Positions 3,464 through 49,584 of a stretch of DNA of 64,000 bases are shown here, piece by piece. A model generated the notes under the pieces. It was not told where the DNA came from, did no database searches, and saw nothing but the letters and a program-made list of their open reading frames with translations. This DNA is from Phycisphaerales bacterium (lineage in GTDB: Bacteria > Planctomycetota > Phycisphaerae > Phycisphaerales > UBA1924). The stretch's first letter is position 1; every line of letters begins with the position of its first letter. Both the position numbers and the translations under genes were made by a program. The DNA lies in contig WFPK01000052.1 in assembly GCA_015487555.1 (NCBI GenBank), positions 44,144 to 108,143 on the forward strand, given 5' to 3'.

Positions 3464-5455
3464 TTAATCGCGAGGCTCAACCATAAGGTACCCCATCATC
3501 TCCAAGTGAAGCGCCGAACAGAACTCGGTGCAGTAGAACGGGAAGGTACCCGCAGTATCTGCAACGAACTCGACCGTCGCGGTTTCGCCAGGCTCAAGAC
3601 TCAGTGTGATATTGTACACCGGAATCGAGAACCCGTGGGTCGCGTCAATCGCACGCTCGGTGTTGGTAATCCGCCATTTGACGGTATCGCCCTGCTTGAC
3701 AGTCACATGCTCAGGCGTAAAGTGGCTCCGCATCGCGGTCATAAAGACCTCGACTTCACGATCGCCCTTACGCTCGACACGCTCCATCTTGGCCCGTGGT
3801 GCCCAAGGATCGACCGACTGCGTGTGCGGATCCCAACCAATTTCTGGGTAAACCCACCAAGGATTGAGCTTGTCGGCCTTGATGATCTGAGCATAGTGAG
3901 GCTCACCAATACCCAAAGGCATGTCGTAGATCACAGGCATGTGGGTGCCCTGCTGCGAGATATCAAGGAGCTGGAAGTTCTGAGGAAGCAACGGGCCCAC
4001 ACCGATGAAACGATCGACCGCCCACTTGTTGTACGCAACAAGATACTTGCCGTCAGGATCAACCGTATCGCCCTCGGCTGCGCCAAGATGACCAATGTTA
4101 TAATGCACAGGAGTCTTGGTAACAAGCGTCCAATCTGGCTCTGGATTCAGCTTGCCATACGAGCCCCCCAAGGTCCAACGGGCGACCGCCGAATCAAGGA
4201 AGAGCGAGGTGTAGGCATACCCGTCAGGACCAAACTGCGTGTGCAGCGGGCCAAGCCCAACTTCAACCTGGGCTTCGACAACCGCATCGAAATCGAGCAC
4301 GGGAACGCCGAACTCATCTTTACCCGAGAAGGTCTTGTTGGCGATTGCCTTCTTGATCTTCGCGAACGAATAGATGGTCGTATGCGGATCAAGCTTGCCC
4401 GAAACCACAATAAAGTCACCCTTAGGAGCCACATCAACACCGTGAGGACTCCGAGGCTCGGGGGTCAGGTAAAGAAGCCCCTCAGCGATCGCGGTTTGAA
4501 GCGAGATCACTTCCATACCCTTGATCGTGCTGGTTTTGCCAGCCTCATAAACTTCCGCTGCCTTCTTCCAGTTGATGATGTGCAGATAGTCCGTCGCGTT
4601 CATACTCACGCCGGCTTCAAATGGTGGGTTTTTCTCACCCGCGACACCGATACCCCCAGTCGCCAACTCGGTATTGATCGAGTTGAGGAAGAAATACCCA
4701 TCGCTCTCGAGTTTGCCACAGTCGGCAATATCCTGCCAATATGGTGGCAGCTCGATCGCAAACGATTGATCCACATCAATCCGACCCTTCTTGCGATCAA
4801 ACTTCCACATGGTGACCGCACCACGGAAGTCCTCTTTGTAATCGCTCATCGGCGCATAATCAGCACCCCAAGGCACATTGTATTGTGCCGTTTCAAACAC
4901 ATAATCAGTGTTTGGAGTCACGAACGCACCGCCATGGTCATTGATGAACAGCGGGTTCTTGACGATCTGCTTGGTCTCGAAGTCACGAAGATCAATCACG
5001 GCCATGCGCGCGTTCGATTTATCGTTGACGAAGAGCCATTCCCCGTCATAGTCGCCATTGGTTTCCGAGAGGGCCGGGTGATGGGTATCGCCCCAACGGT
5101 TCTCTTTGCCTTGAACATTGCCCGCATCGAGGATGTCATCGCCCACGCCATATCCATACCCCTGCCAAGGCTCGGGGGTGAAGACAGCGATCGTGCGAAG
5201 AAGTCGCATCGAAGGGACACCGATGACAAAGACTTGCCCCGAGTGTCCACCCGAGGACATAATGACATATTCATCCTTCATGCCTGTCGGGGTGTAGGTC
5301 ATTGCTGCAGCAATGAGGTCTTGAGTGGTCAAGCCCCGTTCCTTTGCAACCTTCTGAACATCGTTCATCGACTGCGCCATGGCCGATGATGCCGTTCCAA
5401 GTGCCACCACCCCTGCTGCGAGCATGAGCTTGGAACTAAATCGCGTGAGTGCCAT
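3464..5455 (-). CDS. nosZ: Nitrous-oxide reductase NosZ, Sec-dependent (clade II type)
   Basis: 663 aa with the C-terminal CuA motif ...HGFSI...FYCTEFCSALHLEMMGYLMV. The N-terminus MALTRFSSKLMLAAGVVALGTASSAMAQS is a signal peptide without a twin-arginine motif. Confidence 0.95.
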   Translation of the reverse strand: MALTRFSSKLMLAAGVVALGTASSAMAQSMNDVQKVAKERGLTTQDLIAAAMTYTPTGMKDEYVIMSSGGHSGQVFVIGVPSMRLLRTIAVFTPEPWQGYGYGVGDDILDAGNVQGKENRWGDTHHPALSETNGDYDGEWLFVNDKSNARMAVIDLRDFETKQIVKNPLFINDHGGAFVTPNTDYVFETAQYNVPWGADYAPMSDYKEDFRGAVTMWKFDRKKGRIDVDQSFAIELPPYWQDIADCGKLESDGYFFLNSINTELATGGIGVAGEKNPPFEAGVSMNATDYLHIINWKKAAEVYEAGKTSTIKGMEVISLQTAIAEGLLYLTPEPRSPHGVDVAPKGDFIVVSGKLDPHTTIYSFAKIKKAIANKTFSGKDEFGVPVLDFDAVVEAQVEVGLGPLHTQFGPDGYAYTSLFLDSAVARWTLGGSYGKLNPEPDWTLVTKTPVHYNIGHLGAAEGDTVDPDGKYLVAYNKWAVDRFIGVGPLLPQNFQLLDISQQGTHMPVIYDMPLGIGEPHYAQIIKADKLNPWWVYPEIGWDPHTQSVDPWAPRAKMERVERKGDREVEVFMTAMRSHFTPEHVTVKQGDTVKWRITNTERAIDATHGFSIPVYNITLSLEPGETATVEFVADTAGTFPFYCTEFCSALHLEMMGYLMVEPRD

Positions 5456-38133: not shown

Positions 38134-38206
38134 GGGCATATAGCTCAGTTGGTAGAGCACGGCATTGAAAATGCCGGTGTCCGTGGTTCAAGTCCGCGTA
38201 TGCCCA
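38134..38206 (+). tRNA. tRNA-Phe (GAA)
   Basis: GGGCATATAGCTCAGTTGGTAGAGCACGGCATTGAAAATGCCGGTGTCCGTGGTTCAAGTCCGCGTATGCCCA. The acceptor stem is GGGCATA/TATGCCC, the anticodon stem-loop is CGGCA-TTGAAAA-TGCCG, and the T-loop is GGTTCAAGTCC. Confidence 0.9.
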
Positions 38207-39497
38207 TTGATTGGTTCTGCAAAGAACCGCAAAGACCAGAAGGGATCAGCATAAGTGCTGGTTCCTTTTTAGTTTGCGCTCCGTTTTGATCTTCTTTGCC
38301 GGTTGTTGCGGATTGCTGCTGCGCTGCCATTTGCGCCCCAAGTGCGCCGCATTCTGCGCCGCTTTTTTCAGTCTGCTTCATCGCTATCGGTGTTGATGCA
38401 GCACGCTCATAATCCTCATCACGAACCATGTGGTAGTGAGCCTCAGCGATCGCCTGGGAGTGCCCCATCCATGCTGTGCATTGAGCCGACGGATATACGG
38501 CCGCCAACTCGGTCGCCCTGCTTGCCCGCATGTTATTGAACAAATTAGGCCATGCGTTCAAGCCAGCCCGCTCGATGAGCCGCCGCATGTGCGTGCCCAG
38601 ATTCGACCCCAAGTCCCGATACCGCCCCACGACGAACTCAGCACCATCGGGGGCACACTCATATGCCTGCATCAACACCTCTCGAAGCTCAGGAAACAAC
38701 GGCACCATTCGCTCTGCCTTGCCCTGATGATGCTCGGTCTTTGGCGATCGAACCCTAAATCGGTTGTTTGCCCAGTCAATATCCGCCCAGCGAACCCCCA
38801 ACACTTCCGATGGGCAACGCAACCCACCAAATCGAGCCAGTGCCACAATGCACCGCCAGTCAGCATCCGGGCATGCCTCCATGACCTTGAAGATGGCCTC
38901 TGGAGTGATAAAGAATGCCTTTTCCCTGTTTGTTTTTCGCCCGGCTTTCACATCTTCAAACGGATTGCTCGGGATCATCCCCCACTTCACTGCTTTCTTG
39001 AAGAACATCCGCGCCCCGCGAATATCGCGTCCGATTGTGGCCTCGGCGTATTTCTTCCCACACAACCATGCCCGCCATTTGTCACCTTCGAGTGAAGTAA
39101 TCGAATCGAGTTGGCGTGAATCGCCAAAGTATGCAATGAGCCGCCGTTGAGTTTGGGCATATCGGATGCGAGTTGATTCCTTCACGCTTACCGTGGCGAA
39201 ATACTCATCAAGCATCCCACCAAGCGTGCGGGTCTTGGCCGCCTCTCTTGGCTCTGCAAGACCTGCCAATACCAGCTTGGCGTAGGTGTCGTCTGGAAGG
39301 TCTGCAAGCCATTCGGCGGTCTGTGGGTTGATCGGTGTGTTGAGTCTGACCGAATCAATCAGCGATTCCACCCGAACCTTGAACGCCTCGGCTGCCTTGA
39401 CATTGATCTTGCCGAGCCGAATCGTGCGCCGATTACCTTTGGAAATCATGAACTGGATGCGTTTGGAGCCGTCTTTGTCGCGAATGAGTGATGCCAT
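38145..39497 (-). CDS. int: Tyrosine site-specific integrase (integrated-state reading frame ends inside tRNA-Phe)
   Basis: 450 aa. It has an N-terminal arm/SAM-like region and a catalytic domain with ...GLRCPSEV..., ...NMRASRATELA..., ...WMGHSQAIAEAHYHMV (catalytic Tyr). The last 14 codons (EPRTPAFSMPCSTN) are antisense of the tRNA body. Confidence 0.9.
   Translation of the reverse strand: MASLIRDKDGSKRIQFMISKGNRRTIRLGKINVKAAEAFKVRVESLIDSVRLNTPINPQTAEWLADLPDDTYAKLVLAGLAEPREAAKTRTLGGMLDEYFATVSVKESTRIRYAQTQRRLIAYFGDSRQLDSITSLEGDKWRAWLCGKKYAEATIGRDIRGARMFFKKAVKWGMIPSNPFEDVKAGRKTNREKAFFITPEAIFKVMEACPDADWRCIVALARFGGLRCPSEVLGVRWADIDWANNRFRVRSPKTEHHQGKAERMVPLFPELREVLMQAYECAPDGAEFVVGRYRDLGSNLGTHMRRLIERAGLNAWPNLFNNMRASRATELAAVYPSAQCTAWMGHSQAIAEAHYHMVRDEDYERAASTPIAMKQTEKSGAECGALGAQMAAQQQSATTGKEDQNGAQTKKEPALMLIPSGLCGSLQNQSMGIRGLEPRTPAFSMPCSTN
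38191..38208 (+). repeat. attL core (3' end of tRNA-Phe)
   Basis: AGTCCGCGTATGCCCATT, identical to 47923..47940. Confidence 0.8.
38340..38360 (+). repeat. 21-bp repeat copy 1 (inside the element, 131 bp from the attL core)
   Basis: AAGTGCGCCGCATTCTGCGCC, identical to 47853..47873. Confidence 0.9.
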
Positions 39498-41602
39498 TAT
39501 TTTCTACCTTCCTGATCCGAGTCTACCGGATTCGTATCGCCGATGCGAGGTTCATTGTTCAGATTGGGGCCGCGAAGATCCACCGGGGGTATCCTGTTCA
39601 GTTGCTCTGAATCACATACACCGCCATTGTCCGCCACATCTCCCTCTATGGCAAAGTTGGCGGGCTTTGGTTCATCTTGGCGGTCTATGGTGGGCATTGC
39701 CCACATCCAGCGACCACTACTTGAGAATCCCTCGCGGATTGCTGTTGCCTTGATTCGCTTCTTGGCACGCTCGATCGTGCGCCATGCAAGCCCGTCCTGC
39801 TCGCCCATTCTCCTGATGTCACTTGATGCCATCGGGCCGTCACTGAGCACATCGCGGAGCCATTTCCCGGCTTCATCACCCGCGCTGCTCCCACCGGTGC
39901 TGTTAGCCAGCACCTCGGATGCTGTGATACTCACTGAATCGGCTTCCCACTGGACCCGAGCAGGATCATCGCCGATCGTGAATGCCAAACCCGGCGAGGG
40001 GATGGACAGGTTCATCTTGCCGGGGAGTAAAAACCGCCGATCTTCATCATCGGGATCACGCATCAAATGGAGCACCGATCGGGCAAGCCCAGTGAATGCC
40101 CTTGAGCCGAGCACCATGTCATCTGGGTTCGCCGCTGCGCCCTTGCGTTGGTGGGCTACCAGCACCACCGCTGCGCCTGTTTCTTGGGCGAGGGCAGCCA
40201 GTGGAGCCAACACCGCACGCACTTCATTGTCCCGATGTGCATCTACGCGCCCGCCCATATATGAGCCGATCGGATCAATCACGATCAGCCGCACATCGCC
40301 GATAGTTCTGAGGGCTTGGTGGAGTGGATCAATATCGGCCAGAGTGAATGCGCCCTCAAGCATGTTGCCATGCTTGCCCTGTGCGTGAACACCCTTGAGC
40401 ATATGAATCTGCTCAGAATCAGCATTATGGGCATCGAGCCGAGGGCGGATGGTGTCTCCTGGATCGTCCTCAGCCGAAACCAGTAGCACGCTCCCCGCTT
40501 CGCACGATGCTCCATCGGGCCAGTCCTGCCCGGTGCTCACTCTCGCTGCCCAATCGAGCGTAGCGAACGATTTGCCCTCGCCGGGTCGGCCAACCAGTAG
40601 GCTCAATCGACCCAAGGGCAGCCGTCCAGCCCAAAGCCAACTCACCTTCTGCGCTTGCACATCGGCCATACGCAAGAGCACCGGGCTGCCACATTGGGGA
40701 GCGGATTGCAACTTCTTGGGCGCACACGCCTTTGCGAGTGCCTCAACTGCTTCACGCACCGCGCCCGTGTCACCTTGGGTAAGTTCCAGCACATCGGCCA
40801 TGTCTCCGCCCTTGGGCAACTCAGGCCAACGCTCGATCAAATGCACGATCTTCACCGATGCTGCGCCCGCTTCGCGTGCAAGCTGATGCACACCATCGGC
40901 ATATTTCTCACCTGGCTCATCGTGATCGGGAAGGATCACCACTTCGCGCCCGGCCAATGGTGTCCAGTCCGCATTGCCTGCGCTCTTGCTCCCATGTGGG
41001 CTTGTGGTGGCGATCAGCCCGCACGCTCGGGCCGCGTCCGCAGCCTTCTCGCCCTCACACACATACACCACGCCCTCGGCTTTGAGCAACTCAGCAAGCC
41101 CATACAAGGGCCTCGGTTCAGGCATCCCGCCGATGAACCAACCCGCACCGTTTCGGGACACCGGGCGCATCTTCTTGCCAGATTCAGTATCCCACCGCAC
41201 CATCACCCCCACCGGTTCACCTTGAGCATCGTGGTATGTCCATGCCTTCGATCTTGGGCCGTGTTTGCGCTCCAACGCCTCAACCGCTTGGTGAGCCGTG
41301 GAGTATGTGACTTTTTGGGGCCTCGGGTGTCTGGTGTGGGGTGTTGGATGCTCTTCTGGGAACAAATTACGCATCTCCAATCCAATCGCCTCAATCACTG
41401 ATTCGGTGGTGCAACCAGCATGGCACTTGAGCAATGCCCGTCCATCATCGCCGGGGGTGATGCTCAGGCTCGGGTTCCGATCATCATGGGCCGGGCATCG
41501 ACACATCCAGCCAGTGCCAGATTGTTTGGGTTCGTGTCCAATGACTCTGAGCGCATCGAGCACACGCTGGATGGGATTCGAGGTATTCGTGTTGATGCTC
41601 AT
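39497..41602 (-). CDS. Bifunctional DNA primase / replicative helicase-like ATPase (zinc-binding + Toprim + RecA-like AAA_25)
   Basis: CRCPAHDDRNPSLSI...LKCHAGC zinc motif. Toprim VYVCEGEKAADA...ILPDHDEPG. Walker A GRPGEGKS and Walker B VLLVSAEDD. There is a 1-nt overlap with the int start. Confidence 0.85.
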   Translation of the reverse strand: MSINTNTSNPIQRVLDALRVIGHEPKQSGTGWMCRCPAHDDRNPSLSITPGDDGRALLKCHAGCTTESVIEAIGLEMRNLFPEEHPTPHTRHPRPQKVTYSTAHQAVEALERKHGPRSKAWTYHDAQGEPVGVMVRWDTESGKKMRPVSRNGAGWFIGGMPEPRPLYGLAELLKAEGVVYVCEGEKAADAARACGLIATTSPHGSKSAGNADWTPLAGREVVILPDHDEPGEKYADGVHQLAREAGAASVKIVHLIERWPELPKGGDMADVLELTQGDTGAVREAVEALAKACAPKKLQSAPQCGSPVLLRMADVQAQKVSWLWAGRLPLGRLSLLVGRPGEGKSFATLDWAARVSTGQDWPDGASCEAGSVLLVSAEDDPGDTIRPRLDAHNADSEQIHMLKGVHAQGKHGNMLEGAFTLADIDPLHQALRTIGDVRLIVIDPIGSYMGGRVDAHRDNEVRAVLAPLAALAQETGAAVVLVAHQRKGAAANPDDMVLGSRAFTGLARSVLHLMRDPDDEDRRFLLPGKMNLSIPSPGLAFTIGDDPARVQWEADSVSITASEVLANSTGGSSAGDEAGKWLRDVLSDGPMASSDIRRMGEQDGLAWRTIERAKKRIKATAIREGFSSSGRWMWAMPTIDRQDEPKPANFAIEGDVADNGGVCDSEQLNRIPPVDLRGPNLNNEPRIGDTNPVDSDQEGRK

Positions 41603-42006
41603 GCCTCACCCCCTACATGCTGCCCGACGGCGACCCACACAGCTGCGGGGCATCCGCGTTGGGTGAGCCGTCGATTCCCTGTATCTCGGATCAAACCCAG
41701 CTTCGCAAGCTCTCCGCGACGGGCGGAATAACTTGCAGCGAATATGTCGAGTTGAGTTTCGCCCTCATCGTCAGTGAGTCCATGCGCCCCACTTGCCAAG
41801 ATCGCTCGATAGATTCGTGCCCGTTGGGTGGGCGTGCGGGCCGCGATCATCATGGCTGCCACTTCCGAGGTGCCTTTGGGCGCATTGTGTCGGAATGGTG
41901 GGCGCAGGTCTTGGGCCGAGGGTGTATGCTTAGCATGTTGTGAGTTTTCGGCATCGCCACCAATGGCAGGTGTGGGCGTGCCATTTCCAAATAGATCATT
42001 TTGCAT
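41599..42006 (-). CDS. Hypothetical protein, possible winged-helix DNA-binding protein
   Basis: The start is trimmed to MQNDLFG. The C-terminal part RIYRAILASGAHGLTDDE...ARRGELAKLGLIRDTG resembles a wHTH. It overlaps its neighbours within the operon. Confidence 0.4.
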   Translation of the reverse strand: MQNDLFGNGTPTPAIGGDAENSQHAKHTPSAQDLRPPFRHNAPKGTSEVAAMMIAARTPTQRARIYRAILASGAHGLTDDEGETQLDIFAASYSARRGELAKLGLIRDTGNRRLTQRGCPAAVWVAVGQHVGGEA

Positions 42007-42226
42007 CGGTCTGCCCTCCCTTGCGGGCAATGAACGCCTCCAACTCGGCAACTGGGATCAGCACGATTCGATCGAGCTTGAATGATCCGATCTGCCCGGA
42101 TTTGAGCAGTGTGTGCAATGTTCGCTCAGACACGCCAAGGGCATTGGCGGCTTCCCGCTTGCGGAGGGTGAGCCGAAGATCGGATGGGGGATTGGGGGTC
42201 GGTGCGGGTGGTTGCCAGTTATTCAC
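41996..42226 (-). CDS. Helix-turn-helix (excisionase/AlpA-like, HTH_17) protein
   Basis: LTLRKREAANALGVSERTLHTLLKSGQIGSFKLDRIVLIPVAELEAFI. Confidence 0.7.
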   Translation of the reverse strand: MNNWQPPAPTPNPPSDLRLTLRKREAANALGVSERTLHTLLKSGQIGSFKLDRIVLIPVAELEAFIARKGGQTDAK

Positions 42227-42423
42227 TCGGCACCCCCTTCACGCTCGGCATATTCGGCGAGTTTGATTCGGGCGCGTTCGAGGTGAACCAGCCACCGCCG
42301 CCCGGCTTTGATTGCAGGGATGCGCCCGGCCTCCGCTTCAGATTGAAGCCATGCGATTGGGACCCCCAAGTTTGACGCTGCACGCCTGATGGGAACAAAT
42401 GTTGTTTGTGTTTCTTGGCTCAT
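42223..42423 (-). CDS. Helix-turn-helix (excisionase/AlpA-like, HTH_17) protein
   Basis: The start is trimmed to MSQETQ. Sequence FVPIRRAASNLGVPIAWLQSEAEAGRIPAIKAGRRWLVHLERARIKL. Confidence 0.65.
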   Translation of the reverse strand: MSQETQTTFVPIRRAASNLGVPIAWLQSEAEAGRIPAIKAGRRWLVHLERARIKLAEYAEREGGAE

Positions 42424-42468
42424 ACTGCGAGCATTGCAGCATTTTGAGCAAGACCAAACCAATCCAAT

Positions 42469-43806
42469 TCAGTTCTTCGGTTTGCTTACGGCCCCTTCGC
42501 TTTCCTTCGCCCGTTTGATAGCCGTTTTGTATTCAGGATACCTTTCATAGACTTCAATGATGGAATGATGCCAGCGGTCGGACACCTTCAAACTTCTCTT
42601 CAATCGTCCATCATTCGCGGCAACTCGTAATAAGTCTGCGTATAAGCCTCCATCAGTCGCTGAAGAAAACCATGCGGCATTTCTTCTCTCGACCGCAGAC
42701 GATGAAAATAGCCTTTCCGAACCAGAAGTAGCCTTTTTTTGTTCTTCTACTGTCCCGTCAATATACAATGCCAACCCCACAATCAACTCCTCGATAGGCC
42801 GATAGGCCTCGGAAATCGCTTTTTGTGGATATACAGAATGCCCCTCTCTATCGCAGCGGAGTGCCCCTCTTTTGAGCAAATGGTCACCAGGCAGCTCGTT
42901 TTTCATTCCCATCAATGGGGGAGGAAATATATTGAGGGCGAGCGTGTTCATACCATCCATTGCTGCCCGTATGCGATCTTGTAGCTCTGGGCGGTGTATT
43001 TGAAATGTTGCGTCTCTCGCCCTTCGAAGAGCTGGCTCCCATGTCGCCCACCATTTTCGATTGTCCTCAAGCAACTCTATTTTCTTTGCCTTCAAATCTT
43101 CGCCATGTTCATGCTGAATCACATCAGCCCATTCAGACGCATTGCCTTGGAATACGCGAATATGCCGTTGCACATCACGCATCGCTCTACTCAGCTCGTC
43201 ATACGGGTTGATTCCCGGCTCATCGCACGGCTGCCCATCACCAGTTGGAATCGTCATTCCCACTGGCATCACTTCCCCCGTCCGAGCACTCCATGTTGCT
43301 CGCTCAAGCAGATCCAACACCTCGCCGGGAGGGCTATCGACGCTGTTGTGTTCACTGTTTTCCCAACAAATCATGCCACGCCCAAGTAATCCGGGGACTT
43401 CCTCACCGAACTGCCAAGGCAACGCTGCAAACGGACACATTGATTTTGAAATATATTCATTGGCATTGGGATCAATCGCCAGCACAAGGGTGAGCACAAC
43501 CATGCTCGCAGCGAGTTTTCGCTCCTCGTGCGGCATAGGCTCCTCGAATCGCATGTCAGAATACCCATTTGGGTACTCATCAGAGACTACGGCAACCTTG
43601 GCGCGGTCTAGCCGAGGAAAGATCAACTCTTCCGATGATTTTTCGGCCCATTTGCCATCATGGTCATCTTGTTTCAGATGATTCTCAGAGAAGATTTCTG
43701 TGAGCCGTTTCCCTGCTTCGGTAAAGACCTCACGATTGGCCTCGATCACTTTTCGAGTTGCACGAAGTAAGCCCTCTCGCCGGGCTGGGGTTGCATTTGA
43801 TGCCAT
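42469..43806 (-). CDS. Orphan 445-aa cytoplasmic protein, no recognisable family (island cargo)
   Basis: Long uninterrupted ORF, AT-richer than its surroundings. The start is trimmed to MASNATPARREG, with GGAAGGTGA 5-8 nt upstream of the ATG at 43806. No TM or signal sequence, and no motif that I recognise. Confidence 0.6.
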   Translation of the reverse strand: MASNATPARREGLLRATRKVIEANREVFTEAGKRLTEIFSENHLKQDDHDGKWAEKSSEELIFPRLDRAKVAVVSDEYPNGYSDMRFEEPMPHEERKLAASMVVLTLVLAIDPNANEYISKSMCPFAALPWQFGEEVPGLLGRGMICWENSEHNSVDSPPGEVLDLLERATWSARTGEVMPVGMTIPTGDGQPCDEPGINPYDELSRAMRDVQRHIRVFQGNASEWADVIQHEHGEDLKAKKIELLEDNRKWWATWEPALRRARDATFQIHRPELQDRIRAAMDGMNTLALNIFPPPLMGMKNELPGDHLLKRGALRCDREGHSVYPQKAISEAYRPIEELIVGLALYIDGTVEEQKKATSGSERLFSSSAVERRNAAWFSSATDGGLYADLLRVAANDGRLKRSLKVSDRWHHSIIEVYERYPEYKTAIKRAKESEGAVSKPKN

Positions 43807-44143
43807 CTTGTTCACCTTCCTCGGGCCGAGCGAGCGCGGCTGGGTCGGAAGGTGAATGACCCCGCCGCGTTCGCTCATCGTCGGAGCAACCCGACAAACC
43901 CGTATTTGATGTAGATCATACCACACCGAACAAAGATGCGACAAAGCGGGCCCTCCATGATTTCGCAAAGACCCCCAAAATCATCATTTTCCCTGTTTTT
44001 TCCCTGTTTACCCAACAATCCATAGGAAACACTGGGAGCAGTACGCGCGCGTGCGCGAGGGGATGCCTCAAATCTACCCGCCTATGAATATCTCCCACCT
44101 GAAGAATGGACAAATCCGTCCAGATACACGATGATCTAGACAC

Positions 44144-47100
44144 ATGGATACACCCACATTTATCGCCAAATGGTCAAAGGCCCAGCTCTCCGAGCGGGCC
44201 GCCTCGCAAGAACATTTTATCGACCTCTGCCGCCTCCTCGGCGTGAAGACACCCGCCGAACTCGATCCCACGGGCGATACCTTTACATTCGAGAAGGGAG
44301 CGAAGGTCTCAGGGCCCGCCTCGATCGGCTCGAAGGGGGCCCACGGGTGGGCGGATGTGTGGTACAAAGGGCGGTTCGCTTGGGAATACAAACGCAAGGA
44401 CAAATACAAGAACTTGGCCGAGGCCTACCGCCAGCTCCAGCAATACCGCGAAGACCTGGGCAACCCGCCGCTGATGATCGTCAGCGACATCACCAACTAC
44501 GAAATCCATACCAACTTCACCGGCTACAAGCCCGAGGTCTTCACCTTCACCCTCGATCAACTCTCCGACCCCGGCACCCTCACCCTCCTCAAACGGGTCT
44601 TCACCGATCCCGAGTCCTTCAAGCCCACCGAGACCGTCGCCGCCATCACCGAGAAGATCGCCGCCAAGATCGGTACCATCGCCCAGCACCTCCGCGATCG
44701 CGGGCATGAGCCGCACGATGCCGCCCATTTTCTGATGAAGGTCATGTTCTGCCTCTTCGCTGAGGATGTGGAACTCCTCCCCAAGGGGCTCTTTGAGCGT
44801 GTCCTCATCAAATCCAAGGACGATCCAGCCCGGCTCAAGAAACAAATGGACGCGATCTTCGATGCTATGCGCACCGGCGGGGACTTCGGCGTAGACGAAA
44901 TCAGCTACTTCAATGGCGGGCTCTTCGACAACGCCGAATCCATCGAACTCACCACCGACGAAATCGAAATCCTCATCGACGCGGCCATCCAAGATTGGTC
45001 GGTCATCGAACCCTCGATCCTCGGCACCCTCTTTGAACGCTCGCTCGATCCCTCAAAGCGATCGCAGATCGGGGCGCACTACACATCCCGCGAAGACATC
45101 ATGCTCGTCATCGAGCCGGTCATTGTCCGCCCGCTTCGCAAGCAGTGGGAAGAGACCAAAGCGCAGATCGAAGACCAGCTCGAACGCCGACGCAAGGGGA
45201 AGACATCGGCCACCAAGAAAAAGGCCGATGCCGAAATCGCCAACCTGCTCGATGGGTTCCAAACCAAGCTCTCCTCCGTTCGCGTCCTCGATCCCGCCTG
45301 CGGCTCGGGCAACTTCCTCTATGTCGCCATCCAGCAACTCCTCTTCCTCGAAAAAGAAGTCATCCTCTACGCATCCCGTGAAGAACTCGGGGTCGGCGGG
45401 TTGCTCCCCCGCGTGCGCCCAACCCAACTCCTCGGCATCGAAATCAACCCCTACGCCTCCGAACTCGCCCAAGTCGCCATCTGGATCGGATACCTCCAAT
45501 GGATGCGAGACAACGGCTTCAACGCCCCCAGAGACCCCATCCTCGAACCCATCGACACCATCGAAAACCGAGACGCGATCCTGGCGTGGGCCGATGAGGA
45601 TGGCGAGCGGATCAGCGTGTGGCGTGAGGGTGCGAAGTGCTTGGGCCAAGCCAAATGGCCCGAGGCGGATTTCATTGTGGGGAATCCGCCGTTTTTGGGG
45701 TCTCGTAAAGCACGAATGGAACTTGGTGATGAGTATGTGGATGCATACCAATCAGCATTTTCCACGACTCCCGAAGGCGTAGATTTATGCTGCTATTGGT
45801 TTGAACTAGCTGGTGCGCAAGTAGTTCAGCATCCCACCTTGCGGGCGGGATTGTTGGCGACACAAGGAATCCGCGGTGGGTCAAGCAGATCAGTATTGCA
45901 ACGAATCGAATCTAGATCAACAATCTTCTTTGCTATATCTGACAGAGTTTGGGAACTGGATGGAGCAACAGTACACATCTCAGTCGTGGGCTTTACTTTA
46001 GATTCTGACGAGCAATATATTTTGGATTGCCTGCCTGTTGACGGCATCAACTCCGATCTCACAGAGGGCGTAAATCTTACTAAAGCGACCAAAAAACCAG
46101 AAAACGCATCCATTTCTTTTCAAGGTACTATCAACAGTGGATCATTTGATCTCTCATATACCGAAGCGTGTCGCATGCTAACTATCCCAAACCCTATCCA
46201 AGCAAATAACGCAGATGTACTCAGGCCTTGGTGCAATGGTCGTGATTTGACTAAAAGAACAAGGGGGCAATGGATTGTAGATTTTGGTGTTGATCGTGAT
46301 GAAAAAGAATGCGCTCAGTACGAAGAGCCATTTGATTATGTTGTGAATCATATAAAACCTCAACGAGACAAGCTGAAAGATGGAAAGCAAAAATACGCGC
46401 ATTCATCGAAATATCCATTTTGGCAAATGTGGAATCCTCGCCCAGAAATGCGAAAAACGCTGCCCGCCGATAGCCGCTATGTCGGCACGCCAAGAGTCAC
46501 AAAATATAGATTGTTCAAATGGATGGATTCAACTCATCTTCCTGACGCACAGATTATTGTCTTCGCCCGTTCTGACGATTATTTTTTCGGCACCCTCCAC
46601 AGCAGCATCCACGAACTCTGGGCACGCCGGCTTGGGTCACAACTCCGAGACGCTGAATCAGGTTTCCGCTACACACCCACTACTTGCTTCGAGACCTTCC
46701 CCCTCCCGTGGTCGCCGGGGCATGAGCCGGGCGAGGGTGAGCCTCAGCGTCCGCTCCACGATGCCATCGGCGAGGCCGCCGCAACCCTCAACGAACAGCG
46801 CGAGCGATGGCTCAACCCGCCCGAGTGGGTGCAACCGATCGCCGACCGGATTGATGCCGAGGATGATTTCGCCGATGTGCTCGCCGTCAGTGGCGAGGAG
46901 GCCCAACGCTTGATCCGCCAGAGCGCGATTGATGCCGCCTGCGCCAAAGACCCCAAACTCAAGAAACGCACCCTCACCAACCTCTACAACGAACGCCCGA
47001 CTTGGTTGAGACTCGCCCACAAAGCCCTCGACCAAGCCGTGATTGCCGCCTACGCCGCCGTTGATCCCGATGGCGATTGGGACACCGCTTGGGCTGAGGT

Positions 47101-47221
47101 CTTCGAGGAAACCGGAGCCGGTCAACCCTTGCCCGAGGGGCATGAGTTGATAGAACGCCGGGAAGAGGTGGAGCAGTTGATTTTGGGGAATCTGCTTCGG
47201 ATGAACCAAGCGCGGGCGTGA
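44144..47221 (+). CDS. MmeI-family Type IIL restriction-modification enzyme (fused endonuclease + N6-adenine methyltransferase + TRD)
   Basis: 1025 aa. The N-terminal nuclease motif is D71-X9-E81-X-K83 (ADVWYKGRFAWEYKRK, 44354..44392). SAM motif I is VLDPACGSGNFL, and motif IV is NPPF (45683..45694). The long C-terminal TRD and helical region are as in MmeI-like enzymes. Confidence 0.85.
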   Translation: MDTPTFIAKWSKAQLSERAASQEHFIDLCRLLGVKTPAELDPTGDTFTFEKGAKVSGPASIGSKGAHGWADVWYKGRFAWEYKRKDKYKNLAEAYRQLQQYREDLGNPPLMIVSDITNYEIHTNFTGYKPEVFTFTLDQLSDPGTLTLLKRVFTDPESFKPTETVAAITEKIAAKIGTIAQHLRDRGHEPHDAAHFLMKVMFCLFAEDVELLPKGLFERVLIKSKDDPARLKKQMDAIFDAMRTGGDFGVDEISYFNGGLFDNAESIELTTDEIEILIDAAIQDWSVIEPSILGTLFERSLDPSKRSQIGAHYTSREDIMLVIEPVIVRPLRKQWEETKAQIEDQLERRRKGKTSATKKKADAEIANLLDGFQTKLSSVRVLDPACGSGNFLYVAIQQLLFLEKEVILYASREELGVGGLLPRVRPTQLLGIEINPYASELAQVAIWIGYLQWMRDNGFNAPRDPILEPIDTIENRDAILAWADEDGERISVWREGAKCLGQAKWPEADFIVGNPPFLGSRKARMELGDEYVDAYQSAFSTTPEGVDLCCYWFELAGAQVVQHPTLRAGLLATQGIRGGSSRSVLQRIESRSTIFFAISDRVWELDGATVHISVVGFTLDSDEQYILDCLPVDGINSDLTEGVNLTKATKKPENASISFQGTINSGSFDLSYTEACRMLTIPNPIQANNADVLRPWCNGRDLTKRTRGQWIVDFGVDRDEKECAQYEEPFDYVVNHIKPQRDKLKDGKQKYAHSSKYPFWQMWNPRPEMRKTLPADSRYVGTPRVTKYRLFKWMDSTHLPDAQIIVFARSDDYFFGTLHSSIHELWARRLGSQLRDAESGFRYTPTTCFETFPLPWSPGHEPGEGEPQRPLHDAIGEAAATLNEQRERWLNPPEWVQPIADRIDAEDDFADVLAVSGEEAQRLIRQSAIDAACAKDPKLKKRTLTNLYNERPTWLRLAHKALDQAVIAAYAAVDPDGDWDTAWAEVFEETGAGQPLPEGHELIERREEVEQLILGNLLRMNQARA

Positions 47222-47307
47222 TCTGCCAGAAGCATTGATTCTTCGCCCCATTGAGGCCACGACACGCCGCTCGCGTGCGATGCGCGGGGTTTGCTAGAAA
47301 CGGGTAT

Positions 47308-47679
47308 TCAAAGTTCAGTAGCACATAAAGCGTGTTTTCGATCTGGATTGAGTTGCTCGATATGCCGCTGAAGTTTTTGTTTTTCTTCTTCAAGATGAGC
47401 GAAAACTTCGTCATTCAGATCATCGCTGTAAAGCAGCTCAAAGAACTCTTTGATTTCCCGTTTGGTCAGAAAAGCAACCCACCCCGCCCAATCTGTCTGA
47501 ACTGCATGAATCTTTCCTGATTCTCTCCATTGGTGAAAGAGCGTCCACGCATTGCGCCCATCACGAAAGAATGGACTTTTCCGCTTCGGAGTCTTGGTAG
47601 CCAGCCCATTTTCGTCGGGTTCAGAATCATCCATGTTTGAGATGTATACATCGAGATATGGCATTGTGATTGCTTCCAT
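47308..47679 (-). CDS. Orphan small protein (about 119-140 aa; start 47730/47679/47664 uncertain), island cargo
   Basis: AT-rich ORF ...MPYLDVYISNMDDSEPDENGL...WTLFHQWRESGKIHAVQTDWAGWVAFLTKREIKEFFELLYSD... No family was recognised. The upstream alternative TTG start overlaps the stop of the int-tail segment. Confidence 0.45.
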   Translation of the reverse strand: MEAITMPYLDVYISNMDDSEPDENGLATKTPKRKSPFFRDGRNAWTLFHQWRESGKIHAVQTDWAGWVAFLTKREIKEFFELLYSDDLNDEVFAHLEEEKQKLQRHIEQLNPDRKHALCATEL

Positions 47680-47726
47680 GAAAAGATAGGCCTTTGAATC
47701 GAATGGTTCTATCAATCCGTAGGTCC

Positions 47727-47939
47727 TCAATGTTCTCCACCGCTGATCAACTCCAGAATCTTCCCTCGCACATCTTCACAAAGCGTTGGCCAGACTCGGA
47801 GAACCTGATCGAGGTCGGGATCGGCTGAGCTGGATTGGGGCGAATCGCCAGAAAGTGCGCCGCATTCTGCGCCCCCACTCTCTGAAATCGGCGTTTCTAT
47901 ATGCGCCAGTGCGGTATGTTTGAGTCCGCGTATGCCCAT
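47727..47939 (-). other. Displaced 3' segment of the integrase reading frame (it would be fused in-frame to int across the att core in the excised circle)
   Basis: The minus strand reads MGIRGL-KHTALAHIETPISESGGAECGALSGDSPQSSSADPDLDQVLRVWPTLCEDVRGKILELISGGEH*. The MGIRGL codons are the att core, read in the same phase as in int (ATG at 38207 and 47939, both in phase with their ORFs). Confidence 0.5.
47853..47873 (+). repeat. 21-bp repeat copy 2 (inside the element, 49 bp from the attR core)
   Basis: AAGTGCGCCGCATTCTGCGCC, identical to 38340..38360 and in the same orientation. Confidence 0.9.
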
Positions 47940-47940
47940 T
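47923..47940 (+). repeat. attR core (displaced copy of the tRNA-Phe 3' end)
   Basis: AGTCCGCGTATGCCCATT. The flanking 5' bases (TGTTTG) only partly match the T-arm (GGTTCA). Confidence 0.8.
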
Positions 47941-47950
47941 CCCAATCAAG

Positions 47951-47982
47951 AAAAGCCTCGGGTCAAACCCGAGGCTTTTTTT
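47951..47982 (+). terminator. Rho-independent terminator, probably the original tRNA-Phe terminator now downstream of attR
   Basis: AAAAGCCTCGGG-tcaaa-CCCGAGGCTTTT, followed by a T-run. It starts 10 nt after the attR core. Confidence 0.7.
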
Positions 47983-48077
47983 CATCGACCACCTCAACCA
48001 ACTCCACAGACTCCATCGAAAAACACCCCAAGCCAAAGCCAGGGGTGCCATTGAGTGTGTAAAGCTTCGCACCTGCC

Positions 48078-49352
48078 CTATGGACAGCCGGCACTAAACG
48101 CCGCGAGGAACGCCGAGATATCGAAGAAGTTCCATGTGCCATTGTTATCAAAGTCCGCTCCCGGATCCTGAGCAGCGAACAAAGAAAGAAACTCCGAAAT
48201 ATCAAAGAAGTTCAGGGCCCCGTCACAGTTGATATCCGCAGGGCAACAATCGAAACCACTTGGCCCATAAAGCACATGCTCGAACGAAGCCATCGGGGTG
48301 TAGCTCAGGCCTTCACATGCGAATCCGCCGAACCAGAAGAGCCCAGCGTGGAGGGTCTCGCCGTCTGAACCACCGGGTAGTGGTGCGTAGATTGCGAATG
48401 CATCTTCCTGACCAGTTGCACCCGGTATCGCGGTATCGAGGTCCCAGGTCCAAGTGCCGTCGCCGTTGTCGATCGCAGTCCCCTCGCCAACACCAAAATT
48501 GATGCCGATTGTTTTGAATGAGTCCGCAAGATCACCATCGATCACACCATCACCATCATGATCGGCTGTTCCGGGCTGGAAAAACCGAACCGACCAACCC
48601 CAATCAAACAACCCATCCTGGTCGAAGTCTGTGTCGGGGAAGCCATCGAAATCATGGTCGCCAAGCCAATACCCAGGCGTATAAAACGCAGCCCCCTGAG
48701 AGTCGCTATCCGTATCCCCAAGCTCAAAGGTCATCGAACTTGAGAACGAACCAGCAAGGTCAATGTCTGCGCTGTAGCCTGCCAATGCGCCATCGTCGAA
48801 GGGTGTGCCGGGCAAATCAGTGAGCCGAAACGAAACCAATGGGAAGCGGTCGCAACGATCACTTCGTCCATTTTCCCCGTCCCAATAAGTCCACTCACCC
48901 GCAAGCCCAACAACCCCATCGCCGACGCCATCGGAATCAGAATCCGTATCAATGTGCCCGGTCACCCAGTTGATATGCACCATATCAACAACCGTATCCA
49001 CAGCCACATCGCCAAAGTCAAGAACAGTAATGCCAGTCGCCAACGAAGTTGTATCAGCGTTATTGTCAACCCCATAGAAAAACTCCGTGGTATACCCCGC
49101 ACCCGCGCACGGATTCGACACCAACGATGACCAGATCGGCCCACTCATCCCAGCAGCAGGTGCTACCTGCTCGTCACCGAGCACCGTCACCACCCGCTCG
49201 CCACTCATGATGTTGTAGTAAATATGAGCAACATCAACCACCTGACCATGCGTCGGCGATAAAGTCACCGGCGATTCCGCAGCCTCAGCAACACCGCCGA
49301 TACCACCGGCACAAAGACAAATCAAAAGAACGCCACTTCCTACACTTTTCAT
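48078..49352 (-). CDS. Secreted Asp-rich Ca-binding-like protein with a C-terminal GC-type dockerin-like domain (paralog 1)
   Basis: The start is trimmed to MKSVGSGVLLICLCAGG (GGGAG upstream), which is a signal peptide. It has DxDxDG-type stretches (DTDSDSDGVGDGV, DHDGDGVIDGD). The C-terminus has two repeats, INCDGALNFFDISEFL and DNNGTWNFFDISAFL, and ends in AGCP. Confidence 0.75.
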   Translation of the reverse strand: MKSVGSGVLLICLCAGGIGGVAEAAESPVTLSPTHGQVVDVAHIYYNIMSGERVVTVLGDEQVAPAAGMSGPIWSSLVSNPCAGAGYTTEFFYGVDNNADTTSLATGITVLDFGDVAVDTVVDMVHINWVTGHIDTDSDSDGVGDGVVGLAGEWTYWDGENGRSDRCDRFPLVSFRLTDLPGTPFDDGALAGYSADIDLAGSFSSSMTFELGDTDSDSQGAAFYTPGYWLGDHDFDGFPDTDFDQDGLFDWGWSVRFFQPGTADHDGDGVIDGDLADSFKTIGINFGVGEGTAIDNGDGTWTWDLDTAIPGATGQEDAFAIYAPLPGGSDGETLHAGLFWFGGFACEGLSYTPMASFEHVLYGPSGFDCCPADINCDGALNFFDISEFLSLFAAQDPGADFDNNGTWNFFDISAFLAAFSAGCP

Positions 49353-49584
49353 TTCATAGCTCCCATTTCCACTGCATTTCCCAAGCAATCCCCAAAAAAC
49401 AGATCGCCGATAACCCGAGCAGGCCGTTGCCCCCTATCCGCACCGCTGAGAAAGCAGTTGCATCAATCTGTTCGATATCAATATATTCATCCTGCACAAC
49501 ATCGCCAATCTCTCACGCATATTCATAGAAAAACACCCGAAAAGGCTCGGGTGTTGAAGGATGATCGTGGAACAATGCCCACAC

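Follow-up and report, generated by a model that had tools for sequence, protein, structure and literature searches.

The integrated element

A stretch of 64,000 nt of DNA from a Phycisphaerales bacterium (assembly GCA_015487555.1, contig WFPK01000052.1, positions 44,144-108,143 of the forward strand), hereafter the window, carries an integrated element inserted at the 3' end of a transfer RNA (tRNA) gene for phenylalanine. We deal here with the integrase gene of this element, int, and with the way in which its reading frame runs into the site where the element recombines with its host. The borders of the element are marked by two copies of the core repeat AGTCCGCGTATGCCCATT, exact over 18 bp and with 21/23 identity when 38186-38208 is set against 47918-47940. 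By an arithmetic estimate, the chance expectation of a repeated 18-mer in 64 kb is about 0.03, and that of a repeated 21-mer about 0.0005. A hairpin followed by a T-run stands directly beyond the right core, and it is therefore read as the terminator of the host tRNA, displaced by the insertion. Since the left core is the 3' end of an intact tRNA while the right one lies beside this displaced terminator, positions 38191-47940 are taken to be the integrated element. On its minus strand the element encodes int, a primase/helicase (AAA_25), orf150 (150 residues), two HTH_17 genes, orf499 (499 residues, no function assigned), orf140 and the severed tail of int.

Excision and the reading frame of int

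In the prophage, int meets no stop codon ahead of the attL core. It reads ...QNQSMGIRGL-EPRTPAFSMPCSTN and then stops, its final 14 codons and the stop being the antisense of the tRNA-Phe. The ATG of MGIRGL is found at 38207 and again at 47939, in phase at both places. When excision is simulated, so that int is joined through the core to the segment 47922..47727, the product is exactly 500 residues long, ends with ...DPDLDQVLRVWPTLCEDVRGKILELISGGEH and terminates at a TGA (47727-47729). The codon that spans the edge of the core specifies leucine both ways, as CTT in attL and as CTC in attR or attP. The predicted attP junction of the element is GCAGAACCAATC/AATGGGCATACGCGGACT/CAAACATACCGCA, and its predicted repaired attB is GGTTCA/AGTCCGCGTATGCCCATT/CCCAATCAAG. 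A first-pass annotation, made from the letters of the window, had proposed that the att core lies inside the int open reading frame (ORF), downstream of the catalytic tyrosine (AEAHYHMV), that both ATGs are in phase, and that recombination would fuse int in frame to the segment 47939..47727, swapping one C-terminal tail for another in an enzyme of roughly 500 residues. All of this holds for the exact core pair, the open frame through attL, the position of the Tyr355 codon and the simulated joint. The same annotation had seen the ORF 47308..47730 as overlapping the int stop and placed it directly behind the long gene; the placement stands for the excised form, but the TTG 'start' that overlaps the stop is nothing else than the first start met mechanically. 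The product of this ORF, orf140, had no match in Pfam or PHROG.

Open frames of this length do arise by chance. Of the mononucleotide shuffles, 6% left the 64-codon tail free of stops, and 3% did so for the 75 codons that separate the tyrosine from the core. The remaining two frames of the tail segment contain stops. Taken alone, the window locus is thus suggestive of an int that spans its own attachment site. It is the comparison with related sequences, laid out below, that makes the case for a predicted attP inside int decisive.

Table 1. Positions, within the window, of the element, its attachment sites and the parts of int.
Feature	Position	Strand	Remarks
tRNA-Phe (GAA)	38134..38206	+	ARAGORN; 3' part regenerated by element DNA
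Integrated element, 9.75 kb	38191..47940	-	from attL core to attR core; direct repeats, ORFs, Pfam, PHROGs
attL core, AGTCCGCGTATGCCCATT, 18 bp	38191..38208		encodes MGIRG(L) on the int strand; direct repeat
attR core, identical 18 bp	47923..47940		displaced tRNA 3' fragment; direct repeat
Original host tRNA-Phe terminator	47945..47985	+	inverted repeat I9, then T-run; right of attR
int, prophage form, 450 residues	39497..38145	-	PF00589 and PF13102; AlphaFold; Foldseek
Catalytic Tyr355 codon (AEAHY; AEAHYHMV)	38433..38435	-	75 codons upstream of the core; no stop between
Severed int tail, 64 codons and stop	47727..47922	-	in frame with int only in the excised attP form
C-terminal helical hairpin, PDLDQVLRVWPTLCEDVRGKILELIS	47742..47819	-	residues 471-496 of the 500-residue form; W480 at 47790-47792
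P1, putative arm-type site, CAGAATGCGGCGCA	38343..38356	-	150 nt from the tRNA 3' end; read as AECGA; repeat D11
P2, putative arm-type site, CAAATGGCAGCGCA	38320..38333	-	23 bp downstream of P1; other frame, QMAAQ
P3, putative weaker copy of the motif, CAAAACGGAGCGCA	38275..38288	-	82 nt from the tRNA 3' end
P'1, putative arm-type site identical to P1	47856..47869	-	196 bp from P2, start to start, after excision
Predicted tRNA-Phe terminator, hairpin then TTTTT	38238..38275	+	antisense inside int; stems GGGATCAGCA and TGCTGGTTCC, TAAG loop
Two HTH_17 genes, excisionase- or recombination-directionality-factor-like	41996-42226, 42223-42462	-	Pfam PF12728; PHROGs excisionase and directionality-factor families
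orf140	47308..47730	-	would directly follow the long int after excision; 95% DNA identity in L089

Relatives of the integrase

With the simulated 500-residue Int as query, a search returned 2,711 homologues, most of them 435-455 residues long with about 87% query coverage, so that they end at or just past the core. Many finish in peptides antisense to a tRNA, such as ...GLEPRTPAFSMPCSTN or ...GLEPVTS.... Six are long forms (P0007, P0020, P0048, P0084, P0089 and P0119), with 41-61% identity over 96-100% of the query, and their tails share the pattern SGGA[EK][SC]GAL ... DPDL..[LV][IV]..W..L.......I..[LI]. A tRNA scan of three contigs with such long forms (L001-L003) found no tRNA. One of them, L001, has a terminal overlap of 141 bp in a k141 assembly and closes into a 5.5-kb circle with a helix-turn-helix gene, a primase, int plus tail and a 488-codon gene, and L003, L006 and L007 have 30-bp terminal overlaps in k31 assemblies. 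In these four, out of the contigs of the six long forms, the overlaps equal k or k-1 and the ends of the contigs are remote from the core, and this speaks for true circles assembled through attP. There is a terminase gene downstream of int in L003, and phage-sized contigs of IMG/VR (23-44 kb; L101, L102, L103, L105 and L106) likewise carry the long form with its motif. As a side observation, the apparently circular L007 (12.3 kb, with a long-form int) has cargo that is unusual in an element this small: a histidine kinase, a sigma-54 response regulator, and a pilin-like protein bearing a methylation motif at its N terminus.

Integrated copies tell the other half of the story. Species-representative genomes contain at least 566 relatives of the window integrase; the 80 loci listed come almost without exception from Planctomycetota, the closest among them being L009, in a metagenome-assembled genome of that phylum, with 84% identity, the same gene order and the same tRNA-Phe. 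An antisense tRNA was found at the end of the int ORF in 55 of the 68 genomic loci that have such an ORF; the int stop falls inside the tRNA in 50 of these 55, and ten tRNA types are used. A second copy of the core was then sought within a 10-kb flank, which left 11 credible loci, the window included, for a simulated excision. An in-frame tail with the motif was restored in nine (L009, L017, L020, L033, L034, L062, L076, L085 and the window), spanning tRNAs for Phe, Val, Tyr, Met, Ile and Ser. In L058 a 13-bp 'second core' gave a tail lacking the motif and was treated as a chance match. Most carriers are small primase-encoding elements of 5-12 kb, and some are phages. Taken together, these comparisons show an arrangement, with a predicted attP inside int, that is conserved across a large integrase clade of the phages and small integrative elements of Planctomycetota.

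The C-terminal tail

The restored tails end in a motif of about 26 residues, DPDL..L..W..L.......I..LI, helix-turn-helix-like and followed by the stop, in which W and L are invariant in three tail alignments (A1, A3 and A5). Conservation is of the kind expected from a protein. Over 15 elements, the mean pairwise identity in the helix region is 0.45, 0.57 and 0.35 at codon positions 1, 2 and 3, and in the hydrophobic columns the second base is T in 100% of the sequences, with the third base at about 0.3. Second bases that are fixed beside third bases that are free indicate that selection acts on the tail as protein, not as DNA. The three tests that the first-pass annotation had put forward can therefore be answered together: full-length homologues with a contiguous W..L...I..L tail exist (the six long forms), the segment 47727-47922 is conserved in a coding manner (the 15 elements), and a crossover simulated at the core gives an in-frame joint with the motif (nine of the 11 credible loci).

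One might still suppose that the tail is no working part of Int, the enzyme effectively ending after Tyr355, and that the open frame is a by-product of constraints on the DNA, since a fixed spacing of arm sites forbids insertions and deletions while the G+C content keeps stops few. The putative arm-type sites (see below) are indeed constrained at the DNA level, with rigid spacing; residues 358-469 are predicted to be disordered; 6% of shuffles leave the tail open; and several homologues work with a short C-terminus. Yet the linker past P'1 varies in length between elements with the frame still open, the hairpin motif is retained at Int identities as low as 35-40% and over six tRNA targets, the codon positions of the hydrophobic columns bear the mark of protein selection, and the two other frames of the tail have stops. 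This makes an accidental frame very improbable.

An exhaustive search with a tail profile matched 10,546 cluster representatives (clusters at 50% identity) at E <= 1e-3, of which 1,663 at E <= 1e-10. Nearly all of the best 150 are orphan ORFs of 60-140 residues, many of which begin right at the core, as (M/V/L)..GLEP.... A word-indexed search with the profile likewise matched only small orphan 'hypothetical proteins', 33 in number; these were the one set with precomputed Pfam assignments, and a Pfam domain was absent from all of them. Could the tail, then, be an independent small gene that comes into frame with int in the circle by coincidence? Gene callers do annotate it as a separate ORF, as the matches just listed attest, many of these ORFs have an M, V or L at the core to start with, and in the window there is an ATG inside the core. 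However, no stop separates int from the tail in any circular or phage-borne copy, and the starts of the orphan ORFs are not conserved, falling in tRNA-derived core or in host DNA. The ATG of the window lies directly behind the hairpin of the displaced terminator, with no well-spaced ribosome-binding site visible by eye. Finally, phase with int is kept across different att cores at nine of 11 loci, which a separate gene would not need. We hold an independent gene to be exceedingly improbable. We would rather read the small ORFs as tails cut off from int and left at the attR ends of integrated elements, and the orphan family that they make up is probably an artefact of integration. That the tail is a real part of Int, and the architecture with attP inside int a real one, we regard as very probable.

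Domains and predicted structure

Int of the window matches PF00589 over residues 200-355 (33 bits against a cut-off of 27.1), the SAM-like domain PF13102 (26.1 against 22.3) and the 'integrase' family PHROG 1 (E = 2.7e-36). Residues R227, K253, R324, H354 and Y355 are invariant in an alignment of 20 family members (A2), and their position would give them the catalytic roles. From the same alignment, AlphaFold predicted residues 1-355 with confidence. The N-terminal domain consists of three strands (2-6, 12-17 and 23-29) and a helix (33-52), with a predicted local distance difference test score (pLDDT) of about 89, and the tail folds into two helices, 471-482 and 485-496, at pLDDT of about 70-82. 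In between, residues 358-469 are predicted to be disordered (pLDDT about 30); they coincide exactly with the part of the protein for which the putative arm sites, terminator, core and P'1 of the next section provide the coding sequence. A further alignment, A4, made of 24 orphan tail ORFs and full-length integrases, misplaced most of the fragments and was not used for structure prediction. The best Foldseek match of the model is full-length lambda Int (1z1b_A, E = 2e-10, 397 aligned columns). According to the model, the window Int is a tyrosine integrase of the lambda type, with one domain for arm binding and a separate one for core binding.

Both forms of the enzyme can be described in these terms. 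The simulated joint shows that the excised or episomal form would encode a 500-residue Int bearing the C-terminal hairpin. The prophage form, as read from the gene, is shown to retain residues 1-436, every catalytic residue included; its product would lack the hairpin while keeping the catalytic and DNA-binding domains, its last 14 residues being tRNA antisense.

Putative recombination sites and a probable terminator within the gene

An exact direct repeat of 21 bp (D11, 38340-38360 and 47853-47873) flanks the core. Within it, CAGAATGCGGCGCA occurs on the int strand in exactly two copies in the 64-kb window. A consensus, CARAAWGCGGCGCA, recurs in every attP form examined, as P1 and P2 upstream of the core and P'1 downstream. 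Among the six comparison contigs whose long form is contiguous, five have P1 and P2 spaced by 21-23 bp. From P2 to P'1 the distance is 195-196 bp in seven of seven attP forms, and six simulated excisions restore it. In integrated loci the motif often stands at positions -150 and -127 relative to the tRNA's 3' end, whichever tRNA this is, and a site like P3 is present at -82 or -83 in L009, L011 and L012. At the protein level the motif appears as 'AECGAL', and this was set aside as a protein repeat: the same 14 nt are read in two frames, within one ORF as well as between elements, giving AECGA in frame 1 and QNAAQ or QMAAQ in frame 0. A motif that is read in two frames is a signal in the DNA and not a repeat in the protein. 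Given an N-terminal domain of three strands and a helix in a protein whose best structural match is lambda Int, the copies of CARAAWGCGGCGCA are read as arm-type sites, which they probably are. On that reading the int ORF would contain attP in its entirety, some 235 bp when measured from P1 to P'1.

Between the putative arm sites and the core there is one more signal, on the other strand. At 38238-38275, where the int strand encodes KKEPALMLIPSG, the tRNA strand can form a hairpin (RNA folding z = -3.45) whose T-run comes 60 nt past the end of the tRNA. A hairpin with a T-run sits at the corresponding place in 27 of 56 family loci, and L140, a site in a related host that has no int, keeps it (5030-5065) with a compensatory change from G-C to A-T. 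The consensus terminator scan did not list 38238-38275, and support comes instead from RNA folding and from the relatives. The hairpin is probably a terminator that the element supplies for the tRNA-Phe that it regenerates.

Cargo, neighbours and remnants

The plus strand of the element carries, at 44144-47221, a cargo gene for an MmeI-like restriction-modification enzyme of 1,025 residues, with MmeI helicase-spacer, methyltransferase, target-recognition and C-terminal domains; its counterpart in L009, the closest related element, is 77% identical. A host protein encoded just past attR on the right (48078-49388, minus strand) ends with ...NFFDISAFLAAFSAGCP, and a 787-residue FG-GAP repeat protein of L140 (8870-11233, minus strand) has the same C-terminal motif, ...NFFDISEFLAAYAAGCP. 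The motif common to both looks like an anchoring or sorting signal of the dockerin type.

Loci elsewhere bear probable traces of earlier insertions. Three metagenome loci (L089 1865-2308, L090 2287-2544 and L091 1263-1520) have an attP-like junction, in the order 79-107 bp of an int 3' end, core, tail, with no integrase body upstream. What precedes these junctions are host-like genes, either for an RND efflux pump and a YHS/TRASH-like protein or for a deoxyhypusine synthase and a DUF305 protein. The three loci, with L089 at 95% identity, are best explained by the insertion of a new element next to what is left of the int 3' end, namely the terminator, of an earlier one; remnants of this kind are directly visible in L140 and L141. 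In L140 (4954-5074) and L141 (1870-1988), whose flanks are 80-83% identical to the window, the tRNA-Phe is followed by only about 75 bp of sequence like the 3' end of int; beyond it, L140 continues with a 586-residue secreted protein, a transposase and an FG-GAP repeat protein. Such a site looks like a decayed former insertion and not like a pristine empty attB.

Weight of the evidence

Several observations weigh against an Int whose attP lies within its own gene and whose tail matters. A metagenome scan with a degenerate pattern for attL, attR, attP and attB found three loci, all of the attL type, and no circle, nor did it find an empty attB with the right flank of the window. The tail matches no Pfam entry and, by sequence search, no PDB entry. 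The assignment of the arm sites rests on motif conservation. A strong hairpin inside the ORF, 20 codons before the core, could limit the full-length message or protein. Simulated excision of L016 and L086 gave tails that are in frame, but degenerate or short. At about 44% identity, L093, L095, L097 and L099 stop 29-31 residues past the tyrosine, and all more distant homologues also stop short, the overall range being 19-31 residues. The existence of these short-ended homologues means that the tail is dispensable for the basic chemistry, and, at such identity, that the layout with attP inside int was gained or lost within the family. A further locus, L100, which like the four just named is an IMG/VR contig, has the same conventional layout as they do.

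Another way to accommodate part of these facts is to grant the architecture to the family while seeing in the window copy an island that has become fixed and does not excise any more, with the long forms elsewhere stemming perhaps in part from tandem arrays or remnants instead of free circles. The outcome of the metagenome scan fits this, as do the attP-like junctions devoid of an int body in L089, L090 and L091, and the remnants of about 75 bp at the tRNA-Phe of L140 and L141 imply that decay is common at this site. Against it, all the parts are intact in the window: int, the pair of 18-bp cores, P1 and P'1, the two excisionase-like genes and the tail; and the overlaps of k or k-1 in L001, L003, L006 and L007, with ends far from the core, argue for true circles. 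A fixed island is, in our opinion, quite improbable. The explanation that we favour as a whole, with good though not full confidence, is a lambda-type Int with its entire attP inside the 3' third of its own ORF and with forms that depend on the state of the element.

A proposed mechanism

On the int strand of the excised form the catalytic domain, which continues to just past Tyr355, is followed by some 110 codons for a stretch predicted to be disordered, then by the hairpin and the stop. The DNA of the 110 codons holds, in succession, the putative arm sites P1, P2 and P3, the probable antisense terminator, the 18-bp core and the putative arm site P'1. Integration at the core of the tRNA shifts P'1 and the hairpin 9.7 kb away from int. 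The full-length episomal Int would be the efficient integrase, acting on attP and attB, while the truncated prophage Int, helped by the two excisionase-like HTH proteins, would still be able to excise and would be damped for re-integration or spontaneous recombination. Each recombination event would in this way rewrite the very enzyme that catalyses it, as in the IntP and IntX forms of phage Mx8. By analogy with that phage, the swap may plausibly be a switch of the stability or of the directionality of Int; as to the specific direction in which activity would change between the two forms, our odds fall a little short of even.

A more tentative proposal, to which we give somewhat less credit, is that the two-helix hairpin, carried on its linker of about 110 residues encoded by attP, might be a family-wide sensor of the integration state. 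Only episomal DNA would yield the hairpin, which integration would either require or be strongly favoured by, perhaps through a bridge between protomers or a contact with the excisionase-like proteins. The prophage would make nothing but hairpin-less Int, competent for excision and poor at integration. If true, control of directionality would reside in the topology of the gene, across thousands of Planctomycetota phages and small elements, and more than 10,000 clusters of orphan small ORFs would be explained as severed integrase tails.

The architecture has practical consequences. For annotation, unannotated small ORFs at the ends of islands become explainable as severed tails of integrases, and island-mapping software should allow int to run across attP. 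In databases, integrase sequences derived from prophages carry artefactual C-termini that are tRNA antisense. As to genetic tools, the long form, and not the annotated prophage form, may be the efficient integrase to use in Planctomycetota. The locus is also a clear case of overprinting, where one stretch of DNA serves as reading frame and as core and also holds putative arm sites and, antisense, a probable terminator for the tRNA. The family finally makes a compact and comparable set of natural variants for probing the role of the tail.

Comparison with known systems

The first-pass annotation had named as precedents the SSV-type integrases and the integration-dependent immunity of mycobacteriophages. 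The closest one is phage Mx8 of Myxococcus xanthus, with its IntP (phage) and IntX (prophage) forms: attP is part of int, and upon integration the gene acquires a new 3' end, with the effect that the enzyme changes in its properties yet is not inactivated (PMC6070905), the Mx8 integrase being also described as extending across attP in the Islander paper (PMC4383910). The likeness is extensive. In both cases attP is inside int downstream of the catalytic tyrosine, and the core is the 3' end of a tRNA read antisense (...STGLEPV... in Mx8, MGIRGL... in the window). Mx8 Int continues from its tyrosine (...DAYTT...) into a linker of about 60 residues, STGLEPV and a tail of about 110 residues. In both, integration swaps the C-terminal segment (about 110 residues in Mx8, 64 in the window) for a short tRNA-antisense peptide, the 14-residue EPRTPAFSMPCSTN in the window, the catalytic domain stays intact, and an excisionase gene is close by. 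Arm sequences on both sides of the core within the Mx8 int were reportedly described by Magrini et al. in 1999, and the same work is said to have found IntX less active, which limits excision, and the full gene restored in tandem prophages. Differences are equally clear. Mx8 has a host in Myxococcota, whereas the window family belongs to Planctomycetota, and the tail of the latter ends in a short two-helix motif common to thousands of elements. The activity difference between forms is a measured one in Mx8 and a predicted one in the window Int. BLASTP of Mx8 Int against the window Int gave E = 0.38, not significant, and found no significant similarity between the tails; tblastn of the 500-residue form against 50,697 phage records gave distant integrases only, with no Mx8 at 1e-3. 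Judging by its gene layout, the window Int is an integrase that would work like that of Mx8, and it is not a member of the same sequence family.

The 'suicidal' integrases of the SSV type (SSV1, pTN3, pT26-2) also have their att site within the integrase gene, which integration changes, and a review holds self-gene-disrupting integrases to be known only from archaea (PMC8371274), a statement that the window case does not contradict. There, integration leaves two inactive pieces of the gene, one N-terminal and one for the catalytic C-terminal part; in the window, by contrast, the split falls 75 codons past the catalytic tyrosine and the recombinase of the prophage is intact. The families differ as well, PF16795 for the SSV type and PF00589 with PF13102 for the window Int, which has no match to PF16795. 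In the integration-dependent immunity of the mycobacteriophages BPs and Brujita, attP lies in a coding region and integration removes a C-terminal segment, so that the protein behaves differently; what is cut there is a repressor gene and the part removed a degradation tag, whereas in the window an integrase is cut and no repressor. In lambda, sib is a 3' element that governs the output of Int from across attP, uncoupled from int by integration and recoupled by excision. It is located outside the ORF and works on RNA, the int message being processed by RNase III, while the part uncoupled in the window is coding. With the Int proteins of lambda, Tn1549 and Tn916 the window enzyme shares an N-terminal arm-binding domain, a core-binding domain and a catalytic fold (1z1b_A), as well as an attP, of about 235 bp in the window, in which repeated, putative arm-type motifs flank the core. 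In lambda, Int stops 14 residues past its tyrosine and attP is outside the gene; the window Int would go on for about 145 residues, encoded by attP and what follows it.

Literature searches brought up no prior description of such an arrangement in Planctomycetes, nor of arm sites within int, and a paper on mv4 was not pertinent. The principle of an integrase that rewrites itself is known from Mx8, the one phage on which it has mainly rested, and the window family is a very widespread further case, with the same architecture in an unrelated lineage. The lack of sequence similarity to Mx8 suggests that this solution arose more than once, or that it is very old. Some anatomy is added by it: two reading frames that run through the putative arm sites, a terminator that the ORF probably harbours for the tRNA, and a conserved helical hairpin at the very end of the protein.

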